Below are positions 10,309 through 56,301 of a stretch of DNA of 64,000 nucleotides, one piece after another; position 1 is the stretch's first letter; each line of letters begins with the position of its first letter. Below the pieces are notes generated by a model. The model worked only from the letters and a program-made list of their open reading frames with translations, was not told where the DNA came from and ran no database searches. The position numbers and the translations under genes were made by a program. Source of the stretch: a virus (taxonomy: Duplodnaviria; Caudoviricetes); IMG/VR virus record IMGVR_UViG_3300028805_000089, positions 24,718 to 88,717 of that record; one strand, 5' to 3'.

Positions 10309-10644
10309 TCAGTCCTCAAAATCCCCGTATACTTCCATCGTGCTGTCGGCGCTGGCGTTGACAACCTTCACGTAATTCACCCCGCCCATCGGGACCTTGT
10401 AAAGCCCCGCCACGCTGATGCTGTCGTCAACGCTGCCGTCCAGCAGATTGATAGGGGAGTCGAACCACACCCCGTTAACGGGATCATTCCCGGTATGTAC
10501 CTTCACGGTCAGGCTTGGTATCCCGTCGCTGAGTACCGTCAGGTATAGCGCCCTCGCGCCCATCTCGTTCTTCACGGGGCCGCCGTCCGTCAGGCCGCTT
10601 CCCTTCTTAATAAATTCCGCGCTCTGTACTCTCACCCGGATCAC
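10309..10644 (-). CDS. hypothetical protein, last gene of the late operon
   Basis: GTG overlaps the upstream TGA; 111 aa. Confidence 0.7.
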   Translation of the reverse strand: MIRVRVQSAEFIKKGSGLTDGGPVKNEMGARALYLTVLSDGIPSLTVKVHTGNDPVNGVWFDSPINLLDGSVDDSISVAGLYKVPMGGVNYVKVVNASADSTMEVYGDFED

Positions 10645-10910
10645 TCCTCTTCTTTCTTCTCTTCCTCTTCACCGTCATTGCCGACATAAACATCGCCCTC
10701 ATAGAAATCCCCGCCCGCGCTGGCGGCGTCGGTGAGTCCTTCCCCGATGATGTACGCGACAACCTACGCTCCGGCCATGATAATGCCGCTGATCTGCGTC
10801 ACGGTCTGCTCGTCCATGTGCAGGGCCAGCAGCAGCCCGCTCACAAATCCCACGATTGCCATCCAGAATTTCCTGCTCGTCAGTTTGCTTACCCAGTCGA
10901 TGTTCCTCAT
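10641..10910 (-). CDS. holin, 89 aa, with one in-frame TAG (codon 49)
   Basis: MRNIDWVSKLTSRKFW...IMAGA*VVAYIIGEGLTDAA; frame continues to TGA. Confidence 0.85.
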
Positions 10911-11028
10911 AAATCTTCGCTCCTCTCATTTTCGTCCCGGCGCGCCGGGTCAGTTACTTCCAAACAGGGGACGGTTCTCTGTTCCCTTCAAACCGTCTCC
11001 ATCTCAACTCTCAACTCTTCCCCGTTAC

Positions 11029-11277
11029 TTAACGCCTCCATGGATAATCGTAGCTCATTGCCCGTTCGCTGTCCCCGACGCCCTCCGTGGTCGGATCGAT
11101 CAGGACGCCCAGCAAGCCGAGCAGCGTCAGCACATGGCTGATGATGTCCATCACGGTGCTTTCCTCAACCGGCACCACGATGCCAAGGGATTTACAGACA
11201 TTGTATCCGAAGCCCACGATCAGGCTCAGGAAGGTCGCCAGCCAGACCTTGTTCCGAAAACGCACTTTCCAATTCAT
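11029..11277 (-). CDS. holin, phi-LC3 type
   Basis: MNWKVRFRNKVW...LGVLIDPTTEGVGDSERAMSY. Confidence 0.88.
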   Translation of the reverse strand: MNWKVRFRNKVWLATFLSLIVGFGYNVCKSLGIVVPVEESTVMDIISHVLTLLGLLGVLIDPTTEGVGDSERAMSYDYPWRR

Positions 11278-11281
11278 ACTC

Positions 11282-11506
11282 TTACCCCACTTTCTTCGAC
11301 AGTTCTTCTACGTCTTTGACGACGTCGTCCACGCGCTGCTCCAGTTTGATGGTCCGCTCCACCACCTGGTTGTGTTTTTCCACCTTGATCTCCAACTGTT
11401 CCAATCGGTACGCTATCAGGGCCGCCTGTTTACGGTTACTAATAAACGTCCCCAGGAACGCGCCAAGCGCGGTAATCACCGCCACCACGATCGTTGTCCA
11501 GTTCAT
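11282..11506 (-). CDS. small membrane/coiled-coil lysis-module protein (XhlA/holin-like)
   Basis: N-terminal TM helix followed by YRLEQLEIKVEKHN. Confidence 0.7.
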   Translation of the reverse strand: MNWTTIVVAVITALGAFLGTFISNRKQAALIAYRLEQLEIKVEKHNQVVERTIKLEQRVDDVVKDVEELSKKVG

Positions 11507-11600
11507 AGGATCACCCCCTCAATTATTTGTATTTTGCTAAAATAACCGTACCTCTTATTTTAAATAACTGCCCATCTCTGAAATAAGGAAGACCCCGTAA

Positions 11601-11660
11601 GCCTTCCCCTCAGGGGAAGGTGGCTGCGACCGCAGGGAGCAGACGGATGAGGTTCCCCGT
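11601..11660 (+). repeat. palindromic CCTTCCCC..GGGGAAGG..GGATGAGG element, copy 1
   Basis: Same element at 24123, 49036 and 52571; expanded form at 19981. Confidence 0.8.
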
Positions 11661-11761
11661 CGTTCCCGTCCGTTTCCGTCCGTTCCTTCCCCGTTATCAA
11701 ACAGGGGACGGTTCCTCGTGTTCTCTCCATAATCCCTTTTACCATGTTCACTTCAACGATC

Positions 11762-12664: not shown

Positions 12665-14776
12665 TCAATACCTCCACTTCAGTTTGATGAATGCCCTCGC
12701 AGAAGCCGTTGCGTAAACCACCTTGCCGATGGCCGCGTCCGGGTCGTTCACTTTCGCCAGTTTGCAGTCCGCGTCCAGGCCGATGTAATCCCCTATGGAC
12801 AGCCCTGTCAGGCCGGCCCTGTCGGCCGCGATATACCCACGCGTCTGGATGTATGTGTCGCTGGCGGTCTGGTACGCGACGACGCCGTACACTTTGTCCA
12901 GGGCTGTGGCTTTCTGCCAGTCCTGACCGCTCCGCAGGTTGTAATACTCCACGGCGGTCCCTACGGGCAGGGAGTTTTTGACCGCGCACTGCACGTCCGC
13001 GGTGTTATAGTAAGTCGCCGGCGACGTGTTGTACATCGGCGAACTCCCGCCGCAGCCCATGATCACGATATGCGGATACGTCTGATCGGCGCCAGGGTCT
13101 TTCGATGCCGACAGTATCGTAAAATCGCAGTTGTCGAACACATACACCACCACGTCGTCCGGGTCGGTCGTCTCCAGGTAGTCGTACATGCTGAAGTTGT
13201 ACCCCTTGCAGTTGTACAGGTACACCCTCGGAAGGTTGGGCAGTGAAGGCCGCGTGTGCAGCCCGCCGAGATGGCCGAAATCAACATTATAAAATTCATA
13301 TTCCATACCACACTGGGCGATCCCGGCCCCGTATGTGTGCGGAGGATTGTAGGACATCGCGCCATACGCCCGGAGGACGATGTTTTTCATGGTCCTGTGC
13401 AAAACTTTCCCGATCGGGCAGTGGAAATCGTCGTGGATGCAGTACCGGATGTTCTCCGCGAGGATCGTCAGGTTTTCGATCCCGCCTCCGCCCTGGAGGT
13501 TCAGAGTGCTGATTGCGTTCCGTACATCACTCGAATAATCGGTGGTGTTCAGAGACGCTGTCAGGATGATCTCCTCCGGCTTGCCCATGCCGATCAGGCT
13601 CATTCCGTTGAGCAGTTTCGGCCCCACGAATCCGGTCTGGTTGAAATACGCTGCCTGGATCTCCTCCTCGGTATAGTCTTCCAGCACGTCATACGTCCCC
13701 GGATAGATCTCGATGCGGTACGGGTTCAGCACATCGTTGGCGCTTGTCCCGATCGCGTCCAGCGCGTCTCTAAGATTTGTGTAATCCCCTGTGCCGTCTT
13801 TTTTGATGCTGACCACGGTCGGCCTGATCGGCACATCCCCGAGAACGCTGACCTCGAACGTGACGGTCCGACCGTTGTTGATCGCCCCCGCGGCATATAC
13901 CGCGCTAATGCTTTCCGCGTCCTCGGTCAGGGTGTATTCGTACCACGAACAGTCGCACCTTGCGGAAACAATGGTTGTATTGTCGTGCTTGTATGTGATG
14001 TTTACCCCGTCTTCCCACGGCATTGCCCCGCGCTCAATGTGGAGCACCAGCCGATCTCCCGCTTTGAAATTTCGCGTGATGGTCAGCGTCAGCCCCTGGC
14101 CGCTCGCGGCGGTCCCGCGCACGGAATAAGTCACGTACTTCCTGCCGTCAAATACCTTGGTCACGATCCCGCCGTCGGCGAAACGCCCGAGCACATGCCC
14201 GTATGGATCCACGATGTCCAAGTCGGTCCCCGTGGCCTCGCTGTCCTTGATCAGGTCGGCGCTGTTAAAATTTTTCGTGACAATATGCCCGTTTTCTAAC
14301 CTGACAATCACGTTCCCGGAAGGGTCTGTAATGTCCAGGTCTGCCGTCCCGTCGCTATCAAGCACGCTTGGAATCTTGTTATTTATTTTATACGTTGCAT
14401 CATCAGTTGCGCTCTTTAAGTCACTAACCTCCCCGCCCACGTTCACTTGCGTCCAATGGCCGGATGTCCATGCTTCGCCCGACGCGATTGCCGTCGTACA
14501 TCTGTAAAGCAGCCCGTTGTGGATAACGTAATCGCCGACGGCATATGATGCGCTGGCAGAGTACGTCGGCGCAAAGTTCGCCACGGTATCCGTAAAATCC
14601 TGCGGAAGCGACTCCGTCAAACTCTGCGCCCTGTCGGCTGCTTCAGCCGCGATCTGTGCGTTCTCCTATGCGTTCCCGATTGCTTCAGCCCACTCGGCCT
14701 TGCTCCCGGTGTACCCTTCCTGCACCGCAATGGCATACGCGGATATCGGGCCGATTACTTTCGTCTGTGTTGCCAT
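12665..14776 (-). CDS. tail appendage / receptor-binding protein, 703 aa, with a CBM-like repeat and a pectinesterase-like beta-helix; TAG at codon 37
   Basis: ATG 14776 MATQTKVIGPISAY...GNA*ENAQ continues in frame into the 651 aa ORF; KKDGTGDYTNLRDALDAI...IYPGTY. Confidence 0.8.
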
Positions 14777-14780: not shown

Positions 14781-16346
14781 TCATCCCTCCATGTTTGCCA
14801 TACGCGCATCCGCGATGGCGCGGTCCATCTGTTCCAGCGTCCTGTGCAGTTCAGCGCTTACGTCTTCAAGCCTGCGAAGGATTTCTTCCATGCCGCCCTT
14901 GATATCATCGTCGCCGCCGCTTTCGCCCTTCTTCCCTTCGTCCCCGCCGATGCCAAGTTCCTTCTCGATCTCGTTCCACGTAAGCTAACCCACGATTCCG
15001 TCGGCCTTCAGCCCGTGATTCACCTGGAACTTCTTCACGGCCAAATCCGTCTGCGTCCCGAATATCCCGTCCGGTCTCCCGCAGTCATATCCAAGCTGGT
15101 TCAGCCACTCCTGCAGTTGCTTCACCGCGTCGCCGTTGCTGCCCTTCTTTACCGTTACCATCAGGATCACCTTTCCCGCTTCCGCGATTTCTTCCGGCGT
15201 GTAAAGTCCTTTCGGTATCCCGTAGTTCGTCCAGGATGTGTCGCTCAAGCTTCCGTACTTAACCCCGCCGTTCCCGGTGCAATGGATGATAACGCCGTCC
15301 CCGATGTGGATTCCCGTGTGCGAATAATTTTTGTTCGCGGAGTTGTACTTAAAAAGGCAGCACACCACATTCGGCATCCCGGCGGTCTTACCGCGCTGTT
15401 CCCAGTTTCTCGGCGTTTCATACTGCGTCGTGCATCCCTCGCCGTAAAGGTCAATGCCAGCGCCATGCTCCATCACATAATGCGTAAACCCCCGGCAGTC
15501 GTAGCATTGATGCCCCTGCCACTTACACCCGTCGCAGGTCTTCTGCTTGTTCTACAGCACCGGGCATTCCCCGTAGATTTTGCTCTTATACTCCGGGCGA
15601 TAACCGGCGTATTTCTTCCGCGTCTCCGGGGTGCATTCCTGCCCCCACGCGCCAAAGACATACGGGTCGCCGATTTTGCTTTCAGCCAGTTCTACCACAT
15701 CCCGCGCCTTATCGTTTAACAACACTTTATCCGTCACATGCACCGCCTCCCTCAGTACCAGTCCTCCGTAGTTGTCCATCACGGCACATCCCGGATAATA
15801 AAACGCCAGAATGTCCCTGTACCAAATCCCGTGCTTCGCGGCCACCCGCGCACCGCGCTGGCTCATGCCCACGCCGTGTCCGTACTTTTTGTGTCCGTCC
15901 TCCCTGTCCCATGGGTCTTCCTGCTCGATCAGGTAGGGATAATCCCCGCCCCACCGTTCCTTGGACGAAGTCGTTCTCCCGCCGTTGTTCGCGCTGAAGT
16001 GGGCGACGGCAATGCCGCCGCCGTACATCAGCACCTCGCCTTTGGTATCCATCGCGGCACGGTACGATATGGGATATTTCCCATAATCACACCGCGCCGC
16101 CCGGTATGCCATCGTGGTCTATGCGTCGTCGCTCACCGCCAGCCCCCGCAGCGCCCCTCTGGATATCGCCAGACTCCGCGCCGCAACGGCCTGCGCTTTG
16201 CACGCTTCCATGCCGGACTCCCCGATTTCGGACGCGGTCACCGCCGCGACGTATTCCTCAAAGTCCACGTTTACCGTATCCCCGATATTCACCCCGAAGA
16301 ATTCCGCGTTCTCCCTTTGCGTTATTCTTACCGTTATCTCAGGCAT
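14781..16346 (-). CDS. endolysin-like cell-wall hydrolase, 521 aa: SpoIID/LytB + NlpC/P60 + peptidoglycan-binding domain; 3 TAGs
   Basis: EAQAVAARS, YGHGVGMSQRGA, IGDPYVFG...DCRGF, HTGIHIG, DGIVG*LTW; TAGs at 16119, 15552 and 14985 are all in one frame. Confidence 0.85.
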
Positions 16347-16435: not shown

Positions 16436-18493
16436 TCAATTGTTCAACGCCCTCGGCGAGTTGTATCTCGCAAACATCCACTGCCGCCCCTGGCTGATCA
16501 ATCTCCTGATCTCATGTGTCCAGTATTCCGCCACGACCAGATTGCCGCCCGTGCCAAAGTGAAGTCCGTCATACGGATGGAGCCATGTGTGGTTTGTTGG
16601 CGTCGCACCGTCATGCGAAAATTCGCCCGTGAATTCAGCGACGCCCACCACGTTCATCGGATAAAGGGCGGCGATCTGGTGGATCACGTTATTCGTAACG
16701 TCCACATCGCCGTTTGATGCCCACACCGTGCCAAGATAGATCCGCGCCGTGTTTTTCTGTGAAATAATTTTTGAGATGATCTTGCAATAATATCCGGTTT
16801 CGGTTTCGGCGAAATCATTATAATTGGTGTACGGAGTGACATCGGTTGATAGCGTATCGGTTAGTCCGTTGTTCGTCCCAAGCCATATAATAAAATCCTT
16901 ATACTGGCTGTATGTATAGGAATCGCTATACTCGGTATACCAGTTTGATGCGGAGTACCCGCTTTTCCCGGCGTTCGTTACGGTTGCCCCCGTGAATTTT
17001 GCCAGAAATTGCGGATACGATACGTCCGTATGCGGAGGATTGCCGTTGCCGTGCCAATAGGATTCAGTCAGGCTGTCACCAATGCACAGAACGTTTTGAA
17101 GATAATATTCGTATCTCGGTTCAAGCCGGTCAATGATTGTTCCTGAGGTAACGGAATTGTCAAGGTATGCGCTCTTAACGGTATACCGATATGACGCAGG
17201 GAGATAGATTTTTGTGGATGACGTTGTCATCTCGCTGGCCCGGAAATATTTCGCGCCGCTCGGCACGATGATCGTGGTCAGGCAGTCAAGCTGTTTGTTC
17301 CACTGGTTCGTTGCTCCGGATATATAGGTCCGGTCGGCATCATAAAACGCGATCCCGGCGGCATCCCTATACCCGCACTGCAGTTTCATCGTGTCTGTAT
17401 GGATCGGCAGGAAATCCGTATAGTTGAAATTGACGCTGTCCGTAAGTTCGCCTGTGCTCGCAACAACGTATTTGCCGGCTTTCCACAGCACGGGCATCTC
17501 AAACCACCTGTCGTATTTTTCATCCGTGCTTCCGTTCATTGCGGCGTATACGTCCTCGGCGGCAGTATAATACACCGTTACCACGCCAAGCGTCTTTGAG
17601 CATGATATCACGATGTATTCGGCGTTAGCAGGGATCGTCGGCACGATCAGGTATGCATCCGTATATGTCCCGGTAAAACCGTCAAGATAACCCAAATCAG
17701 CATCATAAAAAGAAACGCCCGCAGAGTTGTTGTTAAGTTTGGTACGGAACCCGATCAGGTTTTTCACAGGCAGGAATGTCGTTGTGTAATAGGATGTATT
17801 GGTTGCCGCCACCCCGGTGGAATAATCCCTGTACCTGTTCTGTATCAGTGTCGGCGTATATGCCACTGCCGTGTCGATATTATCAATCGCGCTCTTTAAG
17901 TCATCAACATCCCCCGCCAGAGCATCGGTCACCGTCTTGATTCCTGCGCTCGTTACGGGGTTGCTGCTGCCTGCGGTCGGCGTGGAGTCAAACGTCAGTT
18001 TGTCCTGTTTCCCCGTTTCCAAATCGCTGATTTGTGTACTGTGAAAGTCAACGGTCATCTGGTCGGCAGCCTGGATATTGTTTCTGGCAGCGCTCCTTTG
18101 GGCCGAAGTCAGGTTCTGGGTTTCATGCCACACGGCCTTTGAAAGGTCCTCGCCGACGCTCACCTGTACCCAATGCGCGGGTGTCCACGCTTCTGCCGTC
18201 GTGATTTTAGTAGTACACCTGTAAAGCGATCCGTAGTGGATTACATAAGCGCCGACCGCGTATGTCGAGCTGGTGGAATATGTCGGTGCAAAGTTTGCAA
18301 TCGTATCCGTAAAATCATCAGGCAGCGACTCTGTCAGGTTCTACACCCTGTCTGCCGCAGCTTCTGCTGCCGCCGCGTTCGCCTACGCGTTGCCAATTTC
18401 CGCAGCCCATTCGGACTTACTGCCGGTGTATCCTTCCTGCACCGCAATGGCATACGCTGAAATAGGTCCGATCACTTTTGTCTGTGTCGCCAT
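16436..18493 (-). CDS. tail appendage with SGNH/GDSL esterase domain, 685 aa; TAGs at codons 37 and 51
   Basis: N-terminal module paralogous to 12665-14776; CIGDSLT, WLGTNN, DGLH motifs. Confidence 0.8.
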
Positions 18494-18549
18494 TTTCATT
18501 CCTCCTCATTTCATCAAACAGGGGACGGTTCTCCGTTCCCCGTCCTCCG

Positions 18550-19875
18550 TTACTCCATCCCCTCGCTCCCCGCCGTCTCCTCTTCGTCCTCGTACACCGG
18601 CGGCCACGTTTCCGTCGTCACGTCCGGGAAGTCGTTAACACTCGTCGCGTTGATTGTCATCGTTCCATCCTGTGCCAGACTTCTTTCAAACCCGCTCACC
18701 AGATGCCTCTCCAGCGGATATCCTTCCTTGTCCGGTCTCCGCAGCGTAATCAGTTGGTTCTCCTGTATATGGAAAATCTGCCCGCATTCGATGCTCACGT
18801 TTTTCTTCAGCGTCGTATACCGCTTCAGCCTGAACCGCGCCAGACTCTCGCACACTTCGCGGCTGTAATATCCGCTCTGCGCTTCCCTTATCAGCTTCCT
18901 GCCAAGAATATATATGTTCGTGTCGCTCTTCGGGTCGGTATTGATTGCCCTGCCGCCAATCACGCCGTGGTCGCTCAGACTTTGCCCTTCGATGATAACG
19001 TCATTGTACATTTCCCCGTTAAGGATTGTATATGTCGTGCCAAGGAACCGGCTGTTGTCCGGCGATATCTCGTATACCACCGGCTTTTCGCTGTCGTTCA
19101 CGTCATCCTGACTCGGCTCCACGCAGAGCCGCCCGGTGCAGTCATACCCGATGCACCCGGCCAGCATCGTGTTCAGTTCCAGCATCACGTCGGCATAGGT
19201 CTGTCCGGCGCTTTCAGCCCGGTATGTGTAAGGCGCGTCCGTCAGATACCCGACCGACCCGTCCTCAAGTTCCTGCGTCTTCCCATTGTAATAATCGGTA
19301 AACATCGGAGGTACGGAGTCAATCTTCAACCAGCTTTCAGGAGGGATGTTCTGTCCGTACCCCCGTGGGAGATTTAGCAGCCCCTGCATCGCCTGAAAAA
19401 TCGGCGTTCCCACCGTCACCTCATAAATGCCGTCCAGATTGCCAAACAATGTCCCGTCAAGGTAACTCCACTTGTCGTACAGGTCCCACGTCACCGTGTT
19501 GCCCTACGGATCGACCGCCTCCTGCGGGTCCTTAATGTAAAACACGCCCTGCGGCAAATAGAATTCTTCGCCGTTTGGCAGCACCAGCCCCTCACTCAAC
19601 CGCACCTGCGTCCCGAACCAGATCTTGTTCACTTCATAACTGAACGCACCGTCGATGTTCGCCAGCGTCACGCTTGCGTTTCTCCTCTGCCCGTTGTTAA
19701 AGTTAACGGTCAGCGTCCCGTCCTGAATAAACGCCCTGCTCTTTGGGTTGTCCGGGTTGTTGTCAACCACAAAATTTACCGTTCCGTCGGGCCACAAAAA
19801 CTCCAGTTTCGCCAGCTTCTGAAACGGCCCCTTCAGCGCCTCCAGATACAAATTCCACTTTTCGCTCTGTGTCAC
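18550..19875 (-). CDS. tail tip / baseplate-hub-like protein, 441 aa; TAG at codon 124
   Basis: AVDP*GNTVTWDLYDKWSYLDGTLFG; position downstream of the tape measure. Confidence 0.7.
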
Positions 19876-19980
19876 TCTTTCACCCCCAGACACCCACATG
19901 ATTATTTTTCAAACGAGTTTTTCTGCCATCGTAATTTTTTTCAACCGACTTCTAAACATTGCCGCAGGAGCGTCTCCATC

Positions 19981-20402: not shown

Positions 20403-22064
20403 TCAAATATTATACGTCACGGTCAGCGTGCATCCCGCCCGCATGAATGTAAAGAATTCGGTCGGGCTGTTCATGCCCACGGCAAATCCTTTAATCGTCC
20501 CGTTCTGAAGCAGATAAAACTTTTCGGGCGGGAATTCAAACGTCCCGGTTTCTCCGGGCGCGATATACTGCATCGGCGCTCCGACGGACAAATACCAGTC
20601 TCCGCTCTGCTATGAATAACTCCACGGGTCGCAGGATCCGGCGTAATTATGTATCGTCGCCGCCGTCAGGTTGTGATAATACGGCCTGATAACAACGCCG
20701 CTGCTGCTCCCGCCGCTGCTTGTCCTTTTGATGCTCACCGTCGCCTTGGTTATCGTGGCCCCGGCCAGCGTCTGCGCAATCGTATCCGCGTCGTCAAACA
20801 GCCAAAGACCGGCCATATATTTTTTGCTCCCGCTGTTGTATCCCATTCTTGGATTGTTCGTTCCGTCGCCGCGCCATCCGATGGCCTTTCCAAGGTACGC
20901 CTCCGTGCCGGTCTTGGAACTCTCGGTAAAGTATCCGCTGCTGCTTGTCCATGTGCTGGTCACCTCGGTCACGGCGGGCGGTGCTTCTCCGCCGCTCGTC
21001 ACCTTGGTCACCGTACCGGAGCATGTGAACGGATAACCGTTGCTCTCATACCCCGTCCCGGCGGAATCTGTCCCGGCGGGAATCGTTCCCTTCGCGTTCA
21101 CATATCCGCCGTCGGGGCTGATGACTACGCCGTTCACAAGGTTCGCAAGCGTCGTTTCGTCCGTGCTGAACGCGCCGCCAGCGCAGTCAACGATATCGGC
21201 ATGCGCATGTTCCACATAGATCGCCGCGCCCGTCCGGTCGATCAGGCATCCGTCGATAAAGGCGTAGCTGCCGTCCCTCACATAAACGCCGTATGCCTGC
21301 CCGTCGTCCCCGGCCTCGCGTTCTACGCCGTGGATTTCAATGCCGCTCACCTTCACGAATCCGTTTCCGCGCAGGTCAACCACCGCGTCCTCCAGCACGC
21401 CCATGAACTGCGTCGTGTCCGTCCCGTCGGTATCGCCCGTGATGTTTACCCTGTTGTTCCCGGATATCACCCAGTCGCCCTTCACCACGGCAGCCTTGTC
21501 AAGGTTCAGCGTCAGCGTCCCGTTCCCGCTGAACCCGGAGATATCCACGTCCTCGACGTATGTCCCTTCAGGTACGGCGATGACCACATCCCCGGTCAGG
21601 TGCTTTCCAAGCCCGTCGATCACATCCTGTATTTTGCCGTTTACCGTCGCGGTCTTCGCACCCTGTATATTGATAATGTCGCCGCCGATATGCCCGTCAA
21701 CCGAGAGGTTGTCAAGCACAAGGCTTACGCCGTTTTCGTCGGCTGAAATAAAAGTCTTTTTCCAGCTTCCGCTGTTCACAGCGCAGGCGTTCCCAAGCCC
21801 GTAAGCCCATTCCACCCACACGCTTTCACCCGGCTGCGCGTTGTAAAGGTCCGGCACAAACGGCACGTCGAACGGCTCTCCGAACGCCTCCCGCACGGTC
21901 AGGACCACGTTTCCGTTTTCGTCTTCATGCGCTCCCTGTACAACGTACATTTTTTTCCTGCGCACAAAGTCCGTGGAATATTCCTTCAGGATATCCGTCA
22001 CAACGTTTTCGATGCCGTTCAGCATCATTTTGTTTTCGACGATTCTGTTTCTTCCGTTATCCAT
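20403..22064 (-). CDS. minor tail protein, 553 aa; TAG at codon 485
   Basis: WSYS*QSGDWYL continues in frame to TGA 20403. Confidence 0.7.
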
Positions 22065-23853
22065 TTTGCTCGTCCGCCTTTATCACGGTCTCGACCTTCA
22101 GTTTGCCCTCGCTGTCAATCTCAAGGTCTGCTGGAACATATTCCATGCTGTTGTCATACACCTGCTCAAGCTGACCGCCGTCGCTCATCTGAATCTCGCT
22201 GCCGACGTACCCATCGTCGTTCATCGTCCACGTCACATATCCGTCCTGATCTACGCTGATAGCCGTCGCCGTGTCGATTATGTCGTCGCCCCGCGCCATC
22301 AACCCGTCCGTCAATAGACTTACGATCTGGCAGTCCTTCGCGTCCCCGACCTCGACCCACGGAATCTCTATCTGCACGGGCTGTTCCGCGTATTTGTCCT
22401 GCGTCTCTTTCACGATGGCGTCGCTTATCTCTATCATCCGCAGGTTGCCCTTCCGGTCCCGCAGGAACTTGACGGTATTCCGCGTGCTCATGTCCATCAG
22501 ATCATCGACCATCTGCACGCTGTCCCTGAACTGCGTATCCTTCACGCCGCCGACCCACGCCCGCAGCTTTCCGCTCAGTCCTTTCCGTCCCACCTTCTGC
22601 ACGGTTGGGTAGGGGGTAAAGTTGTTCTCCACATACGGCGTGTTCTCATTGCTTATGCTACCGCTGTCCACGTTCGCCTGAAACTGGTGTACGCACTTTA
22701 CATGGTACAGGGTATTGTATATCGTTATATATTGTATCTCTTCTTCGTATGCACCGGCAATCGGGAATTTCATGTATTCCGTGTTGGCGGGAGTTGCTTC
22801 TATTATTGCCCAGTTCCAGTAATAGCGCATTTTCATTGGTCTTTCGGATGTCAGCGTGTATCCTTCGTAGTTCGTCGCGGCATAATAAGCTTTGTAAATA
22901 TACTCGGTATTATTGCACGCGCCGAAGTCATACATCTCCGTTTGACCGGGCGGGATCAGTCCAGCCTTTTCCACGGCGTTTGTCTGTGTGTTTATCCGGT
23001 AAATGTCCCATCCCTTTTGCGGCTGCGGCACTTCGTATCCTTCGTCCGCGCTTATCCGCAGGAAAAACGCCGGGTTATCCCGCACATAATAAACTTCCAG
23101 ATGGACCCCTTCCAGCGGCGTCTCAGGCCACGCGACGGTAAAGTCTTCCCAGTCGGTCTGCGCTGTAATCCCGTTTTCAAACGTACCGGTAAGCTGTATG
23201 GAATAATTCGTATGGTTTTTCATCAAACCATAGAAAACAAACGGGGCGCGTGACGCGTATATGTCGCCCGTGTCTTTTAATATCTCATGCTCCGAATCCT
23301 ATTTTGCCAGTTTCCATCTGTATGATATCAGCGGGTTGCCAGGTTGTTCGTCTGATATAAGTCCGCCGAAATAAGCGCAGCGTCCCTGATATAAATATCC
23401 GTTTGGTATCGTAAATGTCGGCCTTTTGCTTGTCAAAAAAAACACGGGACTGATATTGACAAGTCGTTTGAATACAAAGTCTGTACTATCGACATAAAAC
23501 TGGTCTATGCGAAGTTTATAACCGTATTGATAACCGTTGACGATACCGGCGTTTGCAAGGTCTGCTGCCGTGATCGTGTCCTAAAACGGAACGGGATTCC
23601 CGCGTTCGTCCTTGCCGTATATAGGCATTTCATACACTCTTTCGGAGCCGGGTATGTGATAATACTTCGCCCTCACTTCGCTTCTGTATACTTCTGTACT
23701 TTCCGGCGTGTTTTCCAGAATAAAGAACTGCCACGAAACCATCGGCTGCGTCCCGTTAATCTGCCACGTCACCGTCATATCCTGTGTCGCGTCTATAACG
23801 CCCGTCCCGTTAAGCTATGACGGCGTAATGACGGTCGGTTGATAAAGCCCCAT
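22057..23853 (-). CDS. tail tip (distal tail-like) protein, 598 aa; TAGs at codons 13, 91, 185
   Basis: MGLYQPTVITPS*LNG...PVPF*DTI...LAK*DSE; single frame read through to TAA; AAGGAGG RBS. Confidence 0.75.
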
Positions 23854-24244: not shown

Positions 24245-27200
24245 TTACCTGTTTCTGTACAGCCTGTGCCTGCCCAGAATGTCCGTCATCGTTTTCGCGT
24301 CGCTTCCGTCAATCGTGATGCCGTCCACGATAATCGTCGTGCTTTGGTCCACGCTTGAATAGCTTCCGTACTTGCCCTGCTCCGGCGAATACTTGCCGAT
24401 GTCGCCCACCGTAATGGCGTCCCACGTCGGGGCCAGCGCGTACAGCGCGTCAAGCAGTTTCACGGTCCCTTCCATCTGCGCAACGTAATTCTCTCCGGCA
24501 CCCATCATTTTCTGAAGCGCGTCCGTCAGGCTTTCCAGCGGCACCTCCACAGCGTCCACCAGTCTCTGGTAATACTTGTCGAGGTCGTCGTAGGTCTGCT
24601 GCAGCTTGTCCAGCGCATCCTGCAATGGGTCGATGCTCTCTCCGTACTCGTACTCAATTTTCGTCCTCTCATGCTCAAGGTCTTCCTGCTTGCGTTCGAT
24701 TACTTCCTCCTGATCCTCAAGCGCTTCGATTTGTTCCTTGTACTGGTCTTCGATGGCATCCCGTTCCCGCTTCAGCGTCGTGATTTCAAAGTCGGCCAGC
24801 GCGTCAGCATACGCCTCCTCGGCCTCCTTAATCGCCTTCGCGTCGGCCATCCATTCCCATTGCCCGGTTTCTTCATTAAAGTACCTTATCGTCCTCTGGT
24901 GCCTTGCGTCCTCCAGCGCCTGCCGTTTTTCCTCAAGGTCGATGTTTTCCTTGTTGATGTCCCGCTCTTTTTCAAGCCGCTCTATTTCCTTGTTCAGCGG
25001 TTTGATGGCGTCGTCCCTCGCCCTTTCAAGCAGCGTCACTTCATACTGCAGCATCGACAGGCTGTAGTCCAAATCCTCCAGTTCCTCTTCGATGGGCTTG
25101 AGCAATTCATCCCTTGCCCGTTCGATGGCCGTGATATCATCCTGATAACTATCGATCTGGTACTGGATTTTCTTCAGCCCATAATCGATATACTTCCGAA
25201 TGATATCCCAGAAATCTTCCTGTTCTCCTTCGTCGCTGCTCTGGGTTTGGGAACCCTGGCTCTGTTCCCATTCCTCGCGTTCGCTCTTTTTTTCTTCTTC
25301 GTCCTTCTTTTTATCCGGAGGAGGGGTCACGGTCAACTTCGTGGAATCTCCGAACATTTTGCCGAAGAATCCTCCCACAAGGTCCATGAAGTTATTCCCG
25401 CCGTTTGTTCCGTCGGCATAAGCGGGGATGCTCATCTTTCCGCCAAGCAGCGACGCCGTTTCCTTCGCGGTATAGATCGTCGCGCCTTTCGGGATCTTTG
25501 CGATAGTCGGGAATCCGTTTGCGTAAATCTACGCCAGCCCATTCCCGGCAACCAACTCCGGCCCTTCCTCGTTGATCAGGGCATATCCGCCTTTGAAGTC
25601 GGAAGCGCCGTTTGCCGCCTTTGGTAGGTTGAACAAGTCTTTGAGTCCTTCAAGAACGCCGCCTGACGGCGATTTTGTATTCGTCGTTACGGTTATCGTC
25701 TTGTTCTTGATTCCCTCCAGCGTGGTTTTCAGGCGGTTCAGTTTGCTCTGGCTGTCAGAAACGTTTGCGTTAACGCTGAAACTGATTGTCCTTTCGATAA
25801 ATTCCTGAAGTTCTTCAATGGACTCAAGTTCTGTATAAGCGTTTCCTTCAGCGTCAATGGTCAGCGTGGTATGTTTTCCGTTCCCTTGCGTATCGCCAAA
25901 GAATTCGTCGATGATTTGCGTCCCGTCGCCCTCAGTTACAATCTTGACCCTGTGAACGGTACCGGCAGCTTCATCGATTTCCGTAATAATGTCCATAACG
26001 GCGTCGCTGTCTTCCACCTGGAATTGCGCGGTGTATACCATCGTGCCGTCTTCAGTCATAAACGAATCTTCGCTGAGTTTGATTCCGGCGACCGGAAGTT
26101 CAGCTGGATTTTGCCCAAGATTAGCCTGCACAACAGAGGAAGCTTCTTCTGCGGCACTCTTTGCAGAAGACTCATCGGCTGTCACTTTCAGTTCTATCCC
26201 GGCATACATATCTTTAAGCGATCTGCCCTTCGTGGGATCAGGAGAACCGGTGTTCAGCGGACTTGAGGGATTTAATATCGGACTTAAAGCAAATAGCGAC
26301 CCGGTGAATGGGTCATCATCAAAAACGGCGCTCAAATGATAATGATAAGATTCGTCTGTAGTATTGATGCTGTCGGCAATCAGTTTTTGTGCCGCCGCGA
26401 CGCCCGCCTCGACGCCGTCAGTTGTTGCTTCCAGATCATAAGTGCCAAACTCGCCGCTGTTTACCGCTCCCGTGCTGGTCACTACATTTTTTTCGACTTT
26501 ATCAAGGGCTTCGACGGCACCGTCATCATTTCCCGTAACATTGATAACAGCCTTGTTGCTTGCGGCGTTGGCTTTTTCTTCTGCGGTTACGACGACCTGG
26601 TCGGCCTTATTATTAAATTTATCGAGATCGCCGTCATAATGGATCATCCGTACCGTTTGCGTCGGCCCGTTTGCGGTTTCTTCAAGTATAACGATCATAG
26701 CGTTCAGCATATCGCCGTTCGCGCTGTATTCAATCTCCCTTACACCTAAAACAGAATTGGCGTTTGCGTCCGTGATCGAAAGATTTGCCACCTGACCGTT
26801 TGTCTTGTAATAAATATCGCGAATGCGTCCGGCTTGATTGGCAATAAATTCCACGTCCTGAATATTATCGATCTGTCCGTCCGTCGTGAATGTAACATGT
26901 CTGTCTTTTGTCAATGTGTCCATGTTCCATTCAAACACGTCCGCGTCTCTTAACGTGCCGTCCGTATAAAAGCCGACTTTCCGTTGCGTTATATTCGCCA
27001 GCGTTGTATCTATGACGTCGATATTGTTGACTTTGCCGGTAGAGTCAAACTGTATTGTTCTGGTCTCGGCGGCGGCTTCGGCACCGGCAAGTATTTTGTC
27101 GATTGTCATTTGCGCTGTGCCGTCCTGATCGACTTCAAAACTGATTTTGTATGTCGTGCCGTCGTTTTCAAATATGTTTAATCCATTCGGCGTCTATGCG

Positions 27201-30200: not shown

Positions 30201-30706
30201 TTGTCGATGGCCAGGATGTACTGGTTCGCAACGTCTGCGCTCACGTCGCCTGCCCTTTGCAGTTTAACGCTCAGTTCCGCAAGCCCCTCTGCCTGGTCCT
30301 TGTAACCTGCGCGTGTAAAGTCGGCCACGCCTGAAAGGTACTTGGACGCAGCTACGCCGTATGCCTGCGCCACCTTCATAGCGTTCTGCGTCATTCCGGC
30401 AAGTTCTTCGTTTGTCTTTCCGGTCACACGGCGTACCACGACCAGTTCGTCGTCGATGGCCTTGATTTCCTGATACGCGCTTTTCAGATTATTTGTAAAC
30501 GTCTTCCACAATTTCGTGCCAAGGCTGTTCAGCATGTTTTCGTACAGTCTCGTGGTATAACCCACCATCTGGTTAGCCGCTTGCCCCATTCGTCCGCCCA
30601 GATTGATATTCGCCTGCTGCTGCAGCTGATTTAACTGCTGCTGAAGCCCGGCGACGACCGCCGACATATTGTCTACTGCGTTAATATTTACGGTTACGGT
30701 TGCCAT
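24245..30706 (-). CDS. tape measure protein, 2153 aa; 5 in-frame TAGs
   Basis: TP901-type N-terminal region (IDDELVVVRRVTG...); ORFs of 606, 393, 526 and 396 aa plus the gap between the first two share one frame, separated only by TAG at 28886, 28625, 28436, 27194 and 25529. Confidence 0.9.
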
Positions 30707-41425: not shown

Positions 41426-42916
41426 TCAGCGCATGATGCGGCTGATCGCCCCGTCCAGGCCGTCGCCGTCCTTGCCGTTGCTGTTCACGATGTCCCACGC
41501 CAGGGTCCTGCGCTCGTTCTCGCGCTTTTTCTGAGCGGCCTTCAGGACTTTGTCCATGCAGGCGGCGTTCAGCGCCTCCACGGCACGCTCCGCGCCGTTC
41601 CACTTGCCGCAGTTGTCGCAGCAGTCTTCCTCGGCGTATTCCTCAGCATCGTCTTCCAGACCCTTGCACAGTTCCTCGCAGCCGTCCACTTCCATCTCGC
41701 GGACGATCTCGTTCAGGCGGGCCTTCAGGGCGTTCTTCACGTCCTCGATGCGGCGCTGTTTTTCCATCTCGCGCAGTTTCGCGACTTCGGCCTCGGCCTT
41801 GTCGGCGCGTTCTTTTTCAGCGGCGCACAGTTTCTCGGCCTTCTCCTGATTCGCGGCCATTTCGCCGGTCAGTTCGGCGATGTCCACCTCAAAGGCGGTT
41901 TCGTCGTTCAGTTTGAAAACGGCGTTGACACTCAGAGCCTGGAAATGTTCGGGGACGATGGTCTCATCGGTATTCTCGAACACGTAGGCGCAGGGGTCGC
42001 CGTCCTTCAGCATGCAGACGTGCTTTTCGTCCGCAGCCAGCACACGGCAGCCGTCACCAAACCGCTTCGCCAGTTCAGCAAGCTGTTTCCTGTTCATCTT
42101 TCTGTTCACTCCTTGTTTTTCGTTGGTCTCATTGTCCTCGGCCTTTTCCTCTTCCATCGACGCGGCCCTGAGTTTCATTTCTTTAAAAGCCGCCTGCATT
42201 TCGGAAAGCGCCCGGACATTGGCACCGGGGATGGCCGGGGCGACGTCATCGCCCAATATGGTCACGCCCAGTCCCCTCCAGTTTGTGTAGACGTCGATGT
42301 TCCCATTCTGTTCTCCCTCGAACACTTCGGTCTCTGCGCTGACAGACATGCGCCCCTGCGACGCGATTTTGTCAACAAGTTCTTTATGATAAAAGCGCCA
42401 GAGTTTTCCACGGGCAATAATCCATTCCTGCCCATCCTTCTCTTCGACGCGAATATCCCCTTCATTTTCCCCGATGCACCCAACGATTCTTTCGGCATAC
42501 GGACTCATCGTGGAGTAATAGGTGTTGCCGTCGGCGTCGGTCTTCTGGTCCATGTTATGCCCGTCGCCGATCTTGCTTCCCACATACGCGGTCAGGATGG
42601 GGCATCCGCAGAACGTCCATGCAAAATCCTTGATGTTCCTGTAGTCCCAGTTGTTCCTGTTCACCCCGCTCCGCATCACTTCGATCTCAACGGAGTACGT
42701 CAGGTCGTTGTCTCTCTGCAGCACCCTCAGTTCCCCGCATACGGGCTTTTCATCCTGCCCGTCATTTTCCTGCCCGGTTTTCAGTATATAGGCACTCTAT
42801 GTGCAAACCGTCCAGTTGGTCGCATTCGCATTGGTTACGCTGTCACAAAACTCTTTCATAGTTGTGGACAACTGCCCCGTGTTTACGACCAGCTCTTTGC
42901 CGCCTTCCATTTCCAT
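41426..42916 (-). CDS. prohead protease / scaffolding protein, 496 aa; TAG at codon 40
   Basis: GGAGG RBS before ATG 42916; VCT*SAY in frame with GELRVLQ...DGHNM...GVTILG and a coiled-coil C-terminus; the 5' extension is less certain. Confidence 0.7.
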
Positions 42917-43048
42917 CAACCTCCGCAAATCCGCATTTTTTGCGGATATCCGTTCAACACAACATAGGGGACGGTTCTCTGTGTTCACATCAAAACCGCC
43001 TTCATCTCAACTCTCAATTCTCAACTCTCAACTCTAAGTTCTAAACTC

Positions 43049-46041: not shown

Positions 46042-47853
46042 TCACCGTTGAGCGTTCCCACCCCGGTATCCAAGCCCGCGTCCCCTCGTGTCCAGGTGCT
46101 TCATCCCGCCTTTACGCTCAAACTCTTCTTCCCATTCTCCCCGGCGCTCAAAGTCCATCGCCAGTTCCTGGTACTCCAGTTTGCTTGCCCACCGGCAGGC
46201 GTACTTGAATGCCGACCACATATCCCTCTGGATATGGTTGCTCACGCGCTGCTCCTTGATGGTCACGCCCATCGGCTTTTTCACGAGGTTGGCTATCTGT
46301 TCGCACATCTCTTTCGTCTTGATGTACGGTATGGCGATGCTTGCGTTCAGATCATCGTCCTTGATCCGGTGGGCCTGCTTGTATGCCGCCACGCCGTCGT
46401 ACACGTTCTGCGTCAGCAGCCGCATGTTCCCGTGTTCAAACTCGATCTCCATATACCGCACCATCTCGGCGTCCGGGTCATGCGTCCCGGTCACGCCGCC
46501 CTGGCCCGTGGCCTTGATGGCGTATATCACAGGCAGCGCCCCGTTCCTCTCAAGTTCTGGGAACTCATGGTTCACCGTGCATAGGGGAGGGAGTCCGTCT
46601 CCCAAATCCTTGTGCAAATCCTCAAGCACTCCCTTGCCGTATTGCCAGGAGTCGATGGCGATGTACACCCGGCTGCCGCCTGCGGCGTAACGCCTGAAGG
46701 TTTCCTTCAGTTGCCGCGCCTGCATCATTGCTTCCCTCGGCGGGGGATTGTCGAAAACATACACAAGGCTTTTCTTGTATCTGTCTGTCCGGAACGCGCC
46801 CTTCTGTTTCTCCAGCTTCACGACCGCCGTCGCGCACATGGCGTTTTTCGCCCCGTCCACGTAGCTTACGTCGTACCCGATAACGTATATAACGTCCGGC
46901 TTGCCGCATCCCCGGTCTTCCATCACCGAAAGGTCGCTGCTTTCGTGCAGTACGCTGTCCCGGATGATGGGATTCTCGGTCGATCCCGTCCAGACACATT
47001 CCATTTCACGCGTCCATTCCTCCGGGGTCAGGTTCTTCTTCTGCGTCTTGTACCATTTGATATCGCGGACGCCCAGCAGCACGGCGACGATCCCTGGCCA
47101 GGATATCGAAAAGGCGCTCCCGCCTTCCCTCTGCATCTTTACGATGCTCTCCCGCACCGCATACGCTTCGTTCGTCTTCCTCTAAGGGTTCGTAACGTAG
47201 TGATGCTGTACCTGGGGGAAGAAGGGGTCCCGCTCCTTGTTCACCTTCCGCACGATACGGATGGCGGGGGAGATGACCTTGCGGTAATTCTCATGGTTAA
47301 ATTTGTTCCCGGCCTCCTCCTGCGCAAACTCCTCGTTCGTCACGCCGCTGGCGTTCAGGCCACGGAAGTTCTCGCAGGAAAACAGGCTGCCGAATTTCGT
47401 GTTCAGGATGAACCGCGCTTCGGTGTTGGAGGATACCGTAAAATACTTGCACAGTTCCGGGTAGTTCTGCTGTACCGTCGTCCACGCGTCGCTGATGATA
47501 AGCGCCGTCTGTTTCATGCTCGGCCCGTAATACTGCAGCTTGATCCCCGGATACAGTATCATCATCACCAGGTTTGCAAGGAAATGGCTGTAACTCTTCA
47601 GCGTGCCGCGCCCGCCGTCGATGAATGTATCGCTGTACCGGCATACCGCCCGGATATTCACCCTTGCGATGATCTACAGCCCGTACATCGCGTTCGGACT
47701 TTCAAACATATCCAGAAACTTGTCCGGATACCAGCGCCAGTAGCTGATAAGCAGGCCCCATTCGTTCGGAAGCAGGTCAACGTCCCTGTCCCGGACGGTC
47801 TTCTTCTCTTCCCATTTCCTTTTGCTTTTGTTGTAATGCACCCTGAAAGGCAT
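46042..47853 (-). CDS. terL: terminase large subunit, 603 aa; TAGs at codons 60 and 224
   Basis: RWYPDKFLD, GGRGTLKS (Walker A-like), GVTNEE (Walker B-like), YVTNP*RK, GYDVS nuclease motif, RDMWSAFKY. Confidence 0.88.
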
Positions 47854-49080: not shown

Positions 49081-49108
49081 CTTCGTCTCCCCGTAACCTC
49101 GTAAACAG

Positions 49109-49181
49109 CGGGAAATGCCGGACTCGAACCAACAGCCATCGCGTTAACAGCGCGCCGCTCTCCCAATTGAGCTAATTTCCC
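49109..49181 (-). tRNA. tRNA-Asn(GUU)
   Basis: GGGAAAT/ATTTCCC acceptor, GCTC/GAGC D stem, GCGCG-CT GTT AA-CGCGA arm, TTCGAGT T loop. Confidence 0.88.
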
Positions 49182-49388: not shown

Positions 49389-49475
49389 CGGAGGCACAGG
49401 GATTTGAACCCCGGGGGGCTTTTACACCCCTGCGGTTTTAGAGACCGCCGCATTCAACCGCTCTGCCATGCCTCC
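49389..49475 (-). tRNA. amber suppressor tRNA-Ser(CUA)
   Basis: GGAGGCA/TGCCTCC acceptor, G73, Ser-type D arm GCAGAGCGGTTGAATGC, perfect stem GCGGT-CT CTA AA-ACCGC, long variable arm, CGGGG-TTCAAAT-CCCTG. Confidence 0.93.
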
Positions 49476-49545
49476 ATACAAAAACGGCACATCCTTTCGG
49501 ATGTGCCGCATTGGCACGCAGACGTCTTCTCGCCCCGTTACCCGT

Positions 49546-49574
49546 ATTATACCATTTTTTTCAACAAAAGTCAA
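49546..49574 (-). promoter_or_regulatory. sigmaA/sigma70 consensus promoter for tRNA-Ser(CUA) and the late operon
   Basis: TTGACT - 17 bp - TATAAT with TGn extension, about 70 nt upstream of the tRNA. Confidence 0.85.
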
Positions 49575-49607: not shown

Positions 49608-50090
49608 TTATTTTTCATTTTTTACGACGTTCCGGATGATTTCAACCGCTTTCTCCGCGTCACTGATCGTCAGTCCGCTCAACGCGCAGGTCTTCACAAG
49701 GTGGGGGAGGATGCCGTTGTCATCATAATCCGGCGCAACCTCGTCGTCCAGTACGCACCATCCTTCCATCAGGTCTTTGGCGTTCCTGTCTATCCATTCC
49801 CTGATCTCCGCGCCGCGCCCGTCGCCGTGTCCGGTCTTCCCGCTGATGTGTATCCCGCATCTCTTCAACTTCCGCACCAGGTACTTCCCGGTCTCGCTCG
49901 TTTCCTCCGGGTCCCGTTCCCATTCGTCCCGCCAGGAGGAACACAGCACCACGATGGCGTCCGTCTCTTCGATGATGTGCTTCAGCTTTTTAACGCACGC
50001 GTCCTATATCCCGGTATGCCCTCCGGGTTCCGTCGCGTCGCATCCGGCGTAATTCAGCACGCCGTCCACGTCCAGAAATACTGCCTTCAT
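49608..50090 (-). CDS. HAD-superfamily hydrolase (Swiss Army Knife RNA-repair type), 160 aa; TAG at codon 29
   Basis: MKAVFLDVDGVLN motif I lies upstream of GI*DAC; VVLCSSWR and CVLDD lie downstream. Confidence 0.85.
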
Positions 50091-50733: not shown

Positions 50734-51153
50734 TTATTCCTTTCTCTCTGATTCAAATTCTTTGTGTTTCTTTGCTACAACTTCGCGCATCTCGTTGATG
50801 GCGTTCGTAATGTCCTGCACGAACGGGTAACGCGCCCTTTCCTTCAGGGCCTCCCGGAATGCGTCCTATTCCTGCCTGTGCGCGTCCAGTTCGTCCCGCG
50901 TGAATATTTGCTTCGACCTCTTCTCGTACTGGTCCACGTACATCTTCCCGTTGTCCCCGTCGTATGTCACTTCGTAGAACTTCCCGTCGTAAGGCGTCGT
51001 GATGACTAACGCCTTCCTGTTCTGGATCGTCTTGCAGTACCACACCAGCCGCAGACCGTCGATCTTAAAGTCCCTCGGCACCCGGTACTTCAGAGCGTAT
51101 TCCATGTCCCGGAAAAACTGTTCCTCAATCAGCGGCATTCCTTCCTCGATCAT
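50734..51153 (-). CDS. DUF6275-like phage protein, 139 aa; TAG at codon 96
   Basis: VWYCKTIQNRKAL...YEVTYDGD; HRQE*DAFREAL continues to a TAA next to the downstream RBS. Confidence 0.7.
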
Positions 51154-54441: not shown

Positions 54442-54683
54442 CTCGCAAGTTTCCTGTTCCTTATGTCGCGTATCCTGTCGCAGTCCTTCAGCGCTACCTG
54501 CTCCAGGTACAGTTCCACATCGGCCACCTCTTCGTCGAAGGCAAGCAGCGCGTCCTGTACGCTGACCGGCGTAGGATTCTTTCCGTTCAGCACACGCCGC
54601 AGCTTCAGCGCCGCCTGGGCCAATTCACTCGCTTCCTCCGCGACTCCCGCAAGCAGTTCGTCCTGCGTCAGGAAGTCCGTCAC
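54402..54683 (-). CDS. MazG-like all-alpha nucleotide pyrophosphohydrolase
   Basis: EEASELAQA...EEVADV acidic motif. Confidence 0.65.
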   Translation of the reverse strand: MTDFLTQDELLAGVAEEASELAQAALKLRRVLNGKNPTPVSVQDALLAFDEEVADVELYLEQVALKDCDRIRDIRNRKLARWIERLKDRESGD

Positions 54684-54684
54684 T

Positions 54685-55038
54685 TTATATTTTTCCGTTT
54701 TCGCTCACCTCCAGTTTCTGCAGCCAGTCCCGGAACTTCAGCCAACCGGGCCTGTCGATTTTCGTATCGCCCAGATAATCTATCGTTATCGTTTTCCCTT
54801 CCGAAAGTTCACGCGTTGATATTTTGTCGTTCTCTTCGATATCCCGCAGAATCGTTGTCTTCACGTTCTCCGTGACCGCCTGCGGATACCTCATGATAAA
54901 GCCCTGCACTAAAGACGGCATGTAACTTTGCCGCCCGATGGCATACCGCACCGCGCAGATCATCAGCGCACCGAATTCGCTTACATCGTCACCCTTAATC
55001 GTTATGCTCTTCCTCTTCTTCTTTGCTGGCGTCAACAT
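54685..55038 (-). CDS. hypothetical phage protein
   Basis: ICAVRYAIGRQSYMP motif; 117 aa. Confidence 0.7.
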   Translation of the reverse strand: MLTPAKKKRKSITIKGDDVSEFGALMICAVRYAIGRQSYMPSLVQGFIMRYPQAVTENVKTTILRDIEENDKISTRELSEGKTITIDYLGDTKIDRPGWLKFRDWLQKLEVSENGKI

Positions 55039-55321
55039 TTCCGTCTTCTCCTTCCGATTTCTTAAACGTTTCCAACATGATCTTCAGCGCGTCCCGTTCG
55101 GCCTGCAGCTTCTTCAGCTTCTTCCGGGCCGTACACTCCGTGCCGCAGTAGCTTTCCCTGCGGCACATCTCGCAATGGCCTCCGCTCTTCCATTGTTCTG
55201 TACCGGCGTTTACTCGGTCGCCGCTGACTTTGCCGCTGCCGACTGATTCCTGTGCCGTAGGATTGATATTCACGTCCTGCATTGCGTTTTTTAATGCTTC
55301 GCTGATTTCCTTCGCTTCCAA
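54995..55321 (-). CDS. hypothetical protein
   Basis: CEMCRRESYC motif. Confidence 0.65.
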   Translation of the reverse strand: MEAKEISEALKNAMQDVNINPTAQESVGSGKVSGDRVNAGTEQWKSGGHCEMCRRESYCGTECTARKKLKKLQAERDALKIMLETFKKSEGEDGNVDASKEEEEEHND

Positions 55322-55333
55322 TCCCGTTCCTCC

Positions 55334-55609
55334 TTATTCCGGCCTGATCTTTACGGATACGATTCTGTCTGTTTCTATTGTAAACAGGTCGCTGTAATAA
55401 TCGCCGTTCTTCTCAAGCCTTTCCGTCCGGTGATCCGCGCTTCCTTCCCGAAGCACCTTCACCTTCCACGCGCCCTCATCGTACTTCACTTCGATCTCCG
55501 TACCGTCATCAAACTCAATATTCACAATCTGCCCGTAGCAGCCTATCTCATCCTGCCAGTCTCCATCGATCTCTATTAGGTCATCGCTCCAGCCGCTTAC
55601 CTGTATCAT
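55334..55609 (-). CDS. hypothetical phage protein
   Basis: MIQVSGWSDDLIEIDG start; 91 aa. Confidence 0.7.
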   Translation of the reverse strand: MIQVSGWSDDLIEIDGDWQDEIGCYGQIVNIEFDDGTEIEVKYDEGAWKVKVLREGSADHRTERLEKNGDYYSDLFTIETDRIVSVKIRPE

Positions 55610-55785
55610 TCGCCTTTTCCCTCCGCTTTGCCGTTCTTTGCGTTTGCTGCCTTTTCCAGTTTGAGATACAGTTCATAGCAATCGTGACACACCATTCTCG
55701 CGTACAGCGTATCGCCATGCCATAAAGGCATCATCGTCAAATAATTTTCTTTCCCGCATATGGAACATTTACCCTTCGTTGGCAT
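55606..55785 (-). CDS. small Zn-finger protein (59 aa)
   Basis: CSICG...CHDC; overlaps both neighbours. Confidence 0.6.
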   Translation of the reverse strand: MPTKGKCSICGKENYLTMMPLWHGDTLYARMVCHDCYELYLKLEKAANAKNGKAEGKGE

Positions 55786-56026
55786 TGTCCGTTTCCGTCA
55801 CCTGCGCTTTGTCTTGTATTTCGCCCTCCGGTTCCTGCGCTTCGTTCTGTATTTCGTCTCCGGGTTCCTGCGGATGCTTGTCCCGGAATTTATGCGTTCT
55901 GTTCTCTCTGCAATACGGACACCAGTTATGGTTTCTGCACAACGGATCTATGGCCTTCGATCCCCTGTACGGTTTCCTGTGTTCCTTCCCGTGGGCTATC
56001 GCTTTATCCAGAGACATCAGTTTCAC
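55769..56026 (-). CDS. hypothetical protein
   Basis: CRNHNWCPYC motif. Confidence 0.7.
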   Translation of the reverse strand: MKLMSLDKAIAHGKEHRKPYRGSKAIDPLCRNHNWCPYCRENRTHKFRDKHPQEPGDEIQNEAQEPEGEIQDKAQVTETDNANEG

Positions 56027-56301
56027 CTCCTTTGAGTTCCCTTAAAGGCCCCATTCCCGGGGCGATGCTACTGAGGAACATCGTACATACGGTTGTATGC
56101 GTCTATTGTTTCCTGCATAACATCACCCCCTTTACTTAAAGCCTCCTTTATCTCAATAAGCGGACACCGCTTGTCTCGCTCCGTGAATATATTGCATTCG
56201 TCGTCTATCGCATCTCTCATAACCATGCAGTAATAATCACATTCCAGAGGGCACGCCACGCAGGATTCCGGCATTTCAATCTCAACTATCGCTCTGGTCA
56301 T
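56023..56301 (-). CDS. Cys-rich protein; TAG at codon 78, probably read through to TGA (92 aa)
   Basis: MPESCVACP..C..RCPL; readthrough ends at the TGA inside the next RBS (AGGAGGTGA). Confidence 0.6.

Follow-up and report, generated by a model that had tools for sequence, protein, structure and literature searches.

The stretch of DNA analysed here (the window) comprises 64,000 nucleotides (nt) of a caudoviricete phage, the final 64 kb of the 88,717-bp IMG/VR record IMGVR_UViG_3300028805_000089, and raises the question of how a phage expresses late genes that are interrupted by TAG codons alone. The record carries 156-bp end repeats, indicating a complete genome. Judging from the sequence, we consider it highly probable that this temperate rumen siphophage reads TAG as serine in its late arm by means of its own tRNA(CUA) with a serine-type body, probably made with late transcription.

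In-frame TAG codons in intact late genes

A first-pass annotation of this DNA had described 30 in-frame TAG codons in 17 intact genes, to be read as serine. All 30 positions are occupied by TAG on the minus strand, within frames open between TAA or TGA stops, and no TAA, TGA or frameshift was found to break these genes, as had been claimed. The count itself held for 29 TAGs in 16 late genes. It did not hold for position 56068, in a small open reading frame (ORF; 56023..56301, −) for which read-through is doubtful: the homolog of this ORF in the related assembly L005 is 62 amino acids (aa) long and ends well before the TAG, which was rejected as a sense codon for lack of homolog support. This TAG may be a real stop or part of a degenerate tail, and the extra tail relative to the L005 homolog is possibly an insertion or a frameshift remnant.

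Reading through TAG fuses the fragments into 16 genes, most of which end 3–154 nt from the start of the next, and restores the full length seen in standard-code homologs, with a large terminase subunit of 603 aa (vs 599–607) and a tape measure protein of 2153 aa (vs 2033–2215 in standard-code relatives). Treating TGA as a sense codon was tried and rejected, as coding density falls (70% vs 77%). Logan contigs of the source sequencing run, which stem from the same sample and are not independent of the record, show no differing letters across most of positions 10500–30499. TAG is found at identical codons in the independent assemblies L005 (JGI), L006 (Logan) and L013 to L016; the TAGs are therefore not assembly errors, and the read-through claim stands against the refutation by assembly errors that the first-pass annotation had itself envisaged.

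In-frame TAGs account for 29 of 14,172 codons in the minus-strand arm and for 0 of 6,548 in the plus-strand arm (Fisher p 2e-5; a TnpB-like gene set aside). The minus-strand arm holds the packaging, tail and lysis genes, TAG making up ~4% of its Ser codons, and the recoded codons are thereby biased to late, structural and lysis genes. The statement that no gene ends in TAG proved correct for the late arm and wrong for the early arm, where, outside the window, an IS200/IS605 TnpB-like gene (L017; genome G000:C1 13223-14374, +) terminates at TAG; no other gene of the genome is well supported as ending in this codon.

The suppressor tRNA and the residue opposite TAG

A type-II tRNA-Ser(CUA) gene, the putative amber suppressor, is located at 49389..49475 (−). 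Its G1-C72, G2-C71 and G73 and its long variable arm are body features of bacterial tRNA-Ser, accompanied by A3-U70, and all of its best BLAST matches that carry an annotation, in phages and E. coli, are to tRNA-Ser. The CCA end is encoded in L005 and L006 and not in the window. The identity of serine tRNAs resides in the variable arm, G73 and the acceptor stem, without involvement of the anticodon (PMC9976931). Domain searches of the genome detected no RF-1-family domain and no class Ic, IIb or IId synthetase domain.

To identify the residue that TAG stands for, the homolog columns opposite TAG were tabulated, as the first-pass annotation had proposed, and scored by the probability of the homolog residue given the window residue, estimated from the same alignments. 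In the 22 TAG columns for which standard-code relatives could be aligned, serine fitted best, with Thr 9.7 and Gln 18.1 log units below it; over the 18 better-aligned columns serine was again best, Thr falling to -16.0 and Gln to -22.5. Lys was 24–28 log units below Ser. Serine won 4888 and 4970 of 5000 bootstraps in the two sets (98–99%), and its share in TAG columns was 0.34–0.41 against a background of 0.055, so that Ser is enriched opposite TAG and the columns are not dominated by Gln. Five well-conserved columns (47182, 33511, 36214, 36082 and 23815) are occupied by Ser in every, or almost every, close relative.

The columns are spread over minus-strand genes from packaging to lysis. In the YonF-like large terminase subunit (46042..47853; TAGs 47674 and 47182), 6/6 close homologs have Ser at residue 224, while at residue 60 4/6 have Ser and 2/6 Asn. 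The TAG of the YonD-like head protein (41426..43006; 42797) is common to L005 and L014, and that of a head-tail region protein (36567..37265; 37035) faces Pro in standard-code relatives, in a weak local alignment. An Ig-domain structural protein (35095..36453) has a Gln column (5/5) at 36349, a mixed Ser/Thr column at 36292 and Ser columns at 36214 (5/5) and 36082 (4/5), the last two being occupied by Ser codons (TCA, TCG) in recoded strains. Copy 1 of the major tail tube-like protein (32575..33666) carries TAG 33511, opposite which 5/5 standard-code relatives have Ser (local identity 20/21), while TAG 32120 of copy 2 (31487..32557) lies in a variable column with CAG in L014–L016; the gene is a tandem duplicate here (31487-33666, −) and single-copy in relatives. 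In the tape measure gene (24245..30706; TAGs 28886, 28625, 28436, 27194 and 25529), position 25529 is mostly Lys in distant relatives and TCG (Ser) in L014/L015 at 20/21 local identity. One tail protein (22057..23853) has TAGs at 23815 (Ser in 5/5 close relatives), 23581 (Thr in standard-code relatives, Ser in L014) and 23299, another (20403..22064) at 20610, and a tail-associated protein (18550..19899) at 19504, a Gly/Asn column. A protein with CBM5/12 and GDSL domains (16436..18499; TAGs 18383 and 18341) has a CBM5/12 paralog (12665..14776) whose TAG 14666 faces Ser in 3/4. The columns of the endolysin (SpoIID, NlpC/P60 and peptidoglycan-binding domains; 14781..16346) are Ser 18/33 at 16119, Ser 12/19 among well-aligned homologs at 15552 and a Pro/Ala/Thr/Ser mix at 14985, and the one column of a holin-like protein (10641..10910; TAG 10764) holds Ser, Thr, Ala and Ala; both genes agree with the serine result. 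TAG 50004 of an HAD_SAK_2 protein (49608..50090) is covered by the Pfam domain (4-144) and common to L005 and L006. Finally, the TAG of a DUF6275 protein (50734..51153; 50866) corresponds to Thr (ACG) in a 139-aa L005 homolog.

Codon exchanges between close relatives, counted where local identity was at least 16/21, point the same way: the counterpart of TAG in the 13 exchanges was Ser eight times, Gln twice, and Val, Thr and Ala once each, whereas random one-step nonsense mutation would be expected to yield 2–3% Ser and 16–38% Gln. The Ser exchanges involve TCG, TCC, TCA and AGC, the last three of which are not one step from TAG, and include two portal sites (TAG in L006, Ser in the window) and terminase residue 224 in a 97%-identical strain. 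Serine, the residue originally proposed, is thus the best fit by tRNA body, homolog columns and between-strain codon exchanges, and TAG very likely encodes serine in this phage.

Proposed late-stage decoding and competing explanations

A sigma-70/sigma-A-type promoter-like site (49546..49574, −; 11/12 match, extended -10) lies ~70 nt upstream of the tRNA, separated from it by a terminator-like 11-bp hairpin with a U-tract (49476..49509, −). Both are kept in L005 and L006. The standard-code relatives L003 and L004 have weaker look-alikes of the promoter, and L004 has a homologous hairpin and L003 a similar one, with no tRNA behind either and none found at the matching locus; the L004 hairpin precedes packaging genes. 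A tRNA-Asn(GUU) (49108..49181, −) entered the recoded clade along with the suppressor tRNA, and the tRNA pair is also present in L005 and L006.

In a terminase tree (midpoint root for drawing only) the four recoded sequences form one branch, supported at 100/99, inside standard-code relatives. The terminase is 99% identical in L005 and 92.5% in L006, both of which share its two TAGs and the HAD_SAK_2 site, and L013–L016 share other TAG sites and carry additional TAGs elsewhere. Relatives at ~82% terminase identity (L003/L008 and L004; L009–L012 for tail genes) lack in-frame TAGs in the corresponding homologs. Terminase identity to cultured phages is only ~25%, the nearest relatives being uncultured and mostly on the standard code; related-locus searches returned no relatives of the terminase or tail tube in viral contigs, nor of the capsid in genome contigs. 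A NUMOD1 homing-endonuclease-like gene with a small helix-turn-helix gene, absent from the window, sits reversed behind the capsid gene in relatives of either kind, standard-code and recoded (L004 17245-18431, L011 1266-2452, L014 3606-4822; GIY-YIG in L004 and L011).

On this basis the following course of events may be proposed. The host seryl-tRNA synthetase (SerRS) would charge the suppressor tRNA, as its identity elements imply, with no need of a phage synthetase because serine identity is independent of the anticodon, and the charged tRNA would compete with host release factor 1 (RF1) at UAG. The anatomy of the locus suggests an insertion by which the tRNA became the leading cistron of the packaging, tail and lysis operon, just after a promoter and terminator-like hairpin of ancestral origin. 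The tRNA would probably be made once late transcription switches on, early and lysogeny genes staying on the standard code; with the tRNA placed foremost on a late transcript subject to attenuation, the change of code would follow late activation. The promoter and hairpin ahead of the tRNA suggest such late-stage gating. The model for an attenuated late transcript is lambda pR'/tR', to which we liken the promoter-hairpin-tRNA arrangement. TAGs would have arisen both by swaps from Ser codons and from CAG, AAG or GAG, in the latter case with the resulting substitution to Ser being tolerated. Suppression would have to be efficient, with five TAGs in succession to be read through for the tape measure and two for the terminase.

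Several observations weigh against this scheme. The share of Ser in TAG columns is lower than the 0.50–0.61 of ordinary Ser columns, and individual columns hold other residues (Gln 5/5 at 36349, Pro at 37035, Thr at 23581, mostly Lys at 25529). Two TAG columns are paralogous and hence not independent, and TAG is exchanged with CAG three times between strains. Promoter and terminator are recognized only by their match to consensus, and the genes with TAGs 50004 and 50866 lie upstream of the tRNA promoter, so that the proposed timing is imperfectly nested. The Gln and Pro columns and the CAG exchanges fit tolerated substitutions and leave some room for mixed decoding.

The same CAG exchanges and the uniform Gln column are what speaks for code 15, a validated phage code according to PMC9523058, in which TAG would mean Gln by GlnRS/GluRS (glutaminyl-/glutamyl-tRNA synthetase) mischarging of the CUA tRNA or by another tRNA. 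Gln, however, lies 18–22 log units below Ser and won less than 1% of bootstraps, CAG-TAG is the easiest mutation so that a few such sites are expected, and the CUA tRNA has a serine body with a long variable arm, no Gln-type CUA tRNA being found in the genome. The combination that marks code 15, Gln opposite TAG with a Gln-type suppressor tRNA, is thus not what was observed, and we regard this decoding as very unlikely. Somewhat less remote, although still improbable, is a mixed or leaky decoding, mainly as Ser with Gln or Lys at some sites, or with frequent termination yielding useful truncated forms. It would account for the non-Ser columns, which match the one-step neighbours CAG, AAG and GAG, and no phage factor removing RF1 competition was found; but the successive read-throughs of the tape measure and terminase demand efficient suppression, and the non-Ser columns are explicable as tolerated substitutions, 25529 being Lys in distant and Ser in close relatives.

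Microbes that use pyrrolysine occur in the rumen, and the CUA anticodon would suit insertion of this residue, as implied by the ARAGORN label 'tRNA-Pyl'. That label was rejected, since tRNA-Pyl has a very short variable loop (PMC4695839), whereas that of the phage tRNA is long, and a class IId synthetase domain is absent from the genome; with Lys scoring so far below Ser, we give pyrrolysine hardly any credence. Nor do we see more than a minimal chance that the TAGs are nonsense mutations of a defective prophage, or errors. A temperate phage may decay as a prophage, but here the genome is complete, no other stop or frameshift breaks the genes, and the same TAGs recur in independent assemblies with terminases up to 8% diverged, new TAGs appearing at other Ser sites; decay or artefact is largely refuted. 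Decoding of TAG as serine remains our preferred reading.

Genome setting and relation to known recoding systems

The sequencing runs that match best come from sheep gut, while goat, cow and further gut samples match in part; in RNA sequencing runs only small shares match the phage. The genome encodes a pair of tyrosine integrases and a CI-like repressor, along with a YqaJ recombinase, a methylase and a helicase. The integrases and repressor, together with an SPbeta-like (Yon/Yom) head-tail module, identify the phage by gene content as a temperate siphophage. The module resembles SPbeta in its YonF-like terminase and in the YonD, YonB, YomW, YomU and YomN families of its relatives, and differs in the low terminase identity to cultured phages. 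The host is probably a Firmicute; a search of one Oscillospiraceae genome, single, incomplete and so uninformative, gave no match to the suppressor tRNA. Bearing on the host's code are the TAG stop of the TnpB-like gene and the use of the standard code by relatives. Most likely the host uses the standard code, and recoding, the work of a suppressor tRNA, is limited to the late arm, without a genome-wide code.

Three further tRNAs, Ile(UAU), whose anticodon is rare in bacteria, and two Thr(UGU), lie at the end of the early arm (window 7184-7414, +). Closely spaced genes for an IscS-like aminotransferase class V and a PAPS-reductase-domain protein (window 51653-54233, −) are reminiscent of sulfur-modification modules. 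Short intergenic repeats (window ~20000-20200, 24000-24230, 10960-11020 and 11600-11720) attract very high depth from many other gut-metagenome contigs and are probably a REP-like host repeat family.

Serine amber suppressors are known mainly as laboratory mutants, such as E. coli supD and T4 psu1. These share with the phage tRNA a tRNA-Ser body with a CUA anticodon and charging by SerRS (inferred for the phage), whereas the phage tRNA is natural and conserved in the clade, and essential genes depend on its read-through. With in-frame stops in intact essential genes and a phage-encoded suppressor tRNA, the phage shows characters of a recoded phage of the suppressor-tRNA type. The novelty first assigned to TAG-to-Ser recoding has to be curtailed: as summarized in PMC4695839, which cites Ivanova 2014 (Science 344:909), there are reports of phages in which UAG is reassigned to Ser and Gln and which encode a Gln- or Ser-tRNA(CUA). 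The amber-Ser phages of that account resemble ours in meaning and tRNA and, in contrast to the absence of an RF-1-family domain here, are said there also to encode release factor 2. No described lineage was found: our literature search yielded nothing further on amber-to-Ser phages and no paper describing or testing one. Two other IMG/VR phages carry CUA tRNAs with a long variable arm and a different body (L001 12152-12240; L002 6364-6457), L001 having many in-frame TAGs, up to nine per gene.

Borges et al. found only TAG-to-Gln and TGA-to-Trp in phages whose code is unlike that of the host, using a screen that required a 10% gain in coding density for contigs <100 kb (bioRxiv 10.1101/2021.08.26.457843). 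With a rough gene caller, reading TAG as sense gains ~2.6 points here, and density screens would therefore not flag this genome. Code-15 gut phages (crAss-like, Lak, Garnet, Topaz, phAss-1; bioRxiv 10.1101/2021.08.26.457843; PMC10607447) likewise have a suppressor tRNA, TAGs concentrated in structural and lysis genes, a TAG-free integrase, close standard-code relatives and temperate examples. They differ in using Gln rather than Ser and in their low-GC route, compared with the sparse TAGs and the GC content of 53% in this phage and 55–59% in its standard-code sisters.

This phage and its relatives form a new clade and represent a variant of known phage recoding that has seldom been documented; the comparative material they offer is unusually good. 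At a little below even chances, we would venture that they are the first defined phage clade with TAG as Ser and standard-code sisters, that the tRNA was inserted behind the terminator of the late promoter, and that sparse, high-GC, synthetase-free Ser recoding is frequent and overlooked by density screens. Should this be true, late transcription would turn on the genes together with the code that their reading requires. With TAG very likely read as serine, phage amber recoding is not limited to glutamine; serine is the easy route to be expected, given that the anticodon plays no part in recognition by SerRS. Annotation pipelines restricted to tables 4, 11 and 15 would split genes or give terminase, tail and lysin proteins an incorrect residue. 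The suppressor tRNA would be a natural, selected amber suppressor, and the recoded and standard-code sisters (~82% terminase identity), with strains that differ at single TAG/Ser codons, would make a tractable case for the onset of recoding, also bearing on the hypothesis that recoding times lytic genes.

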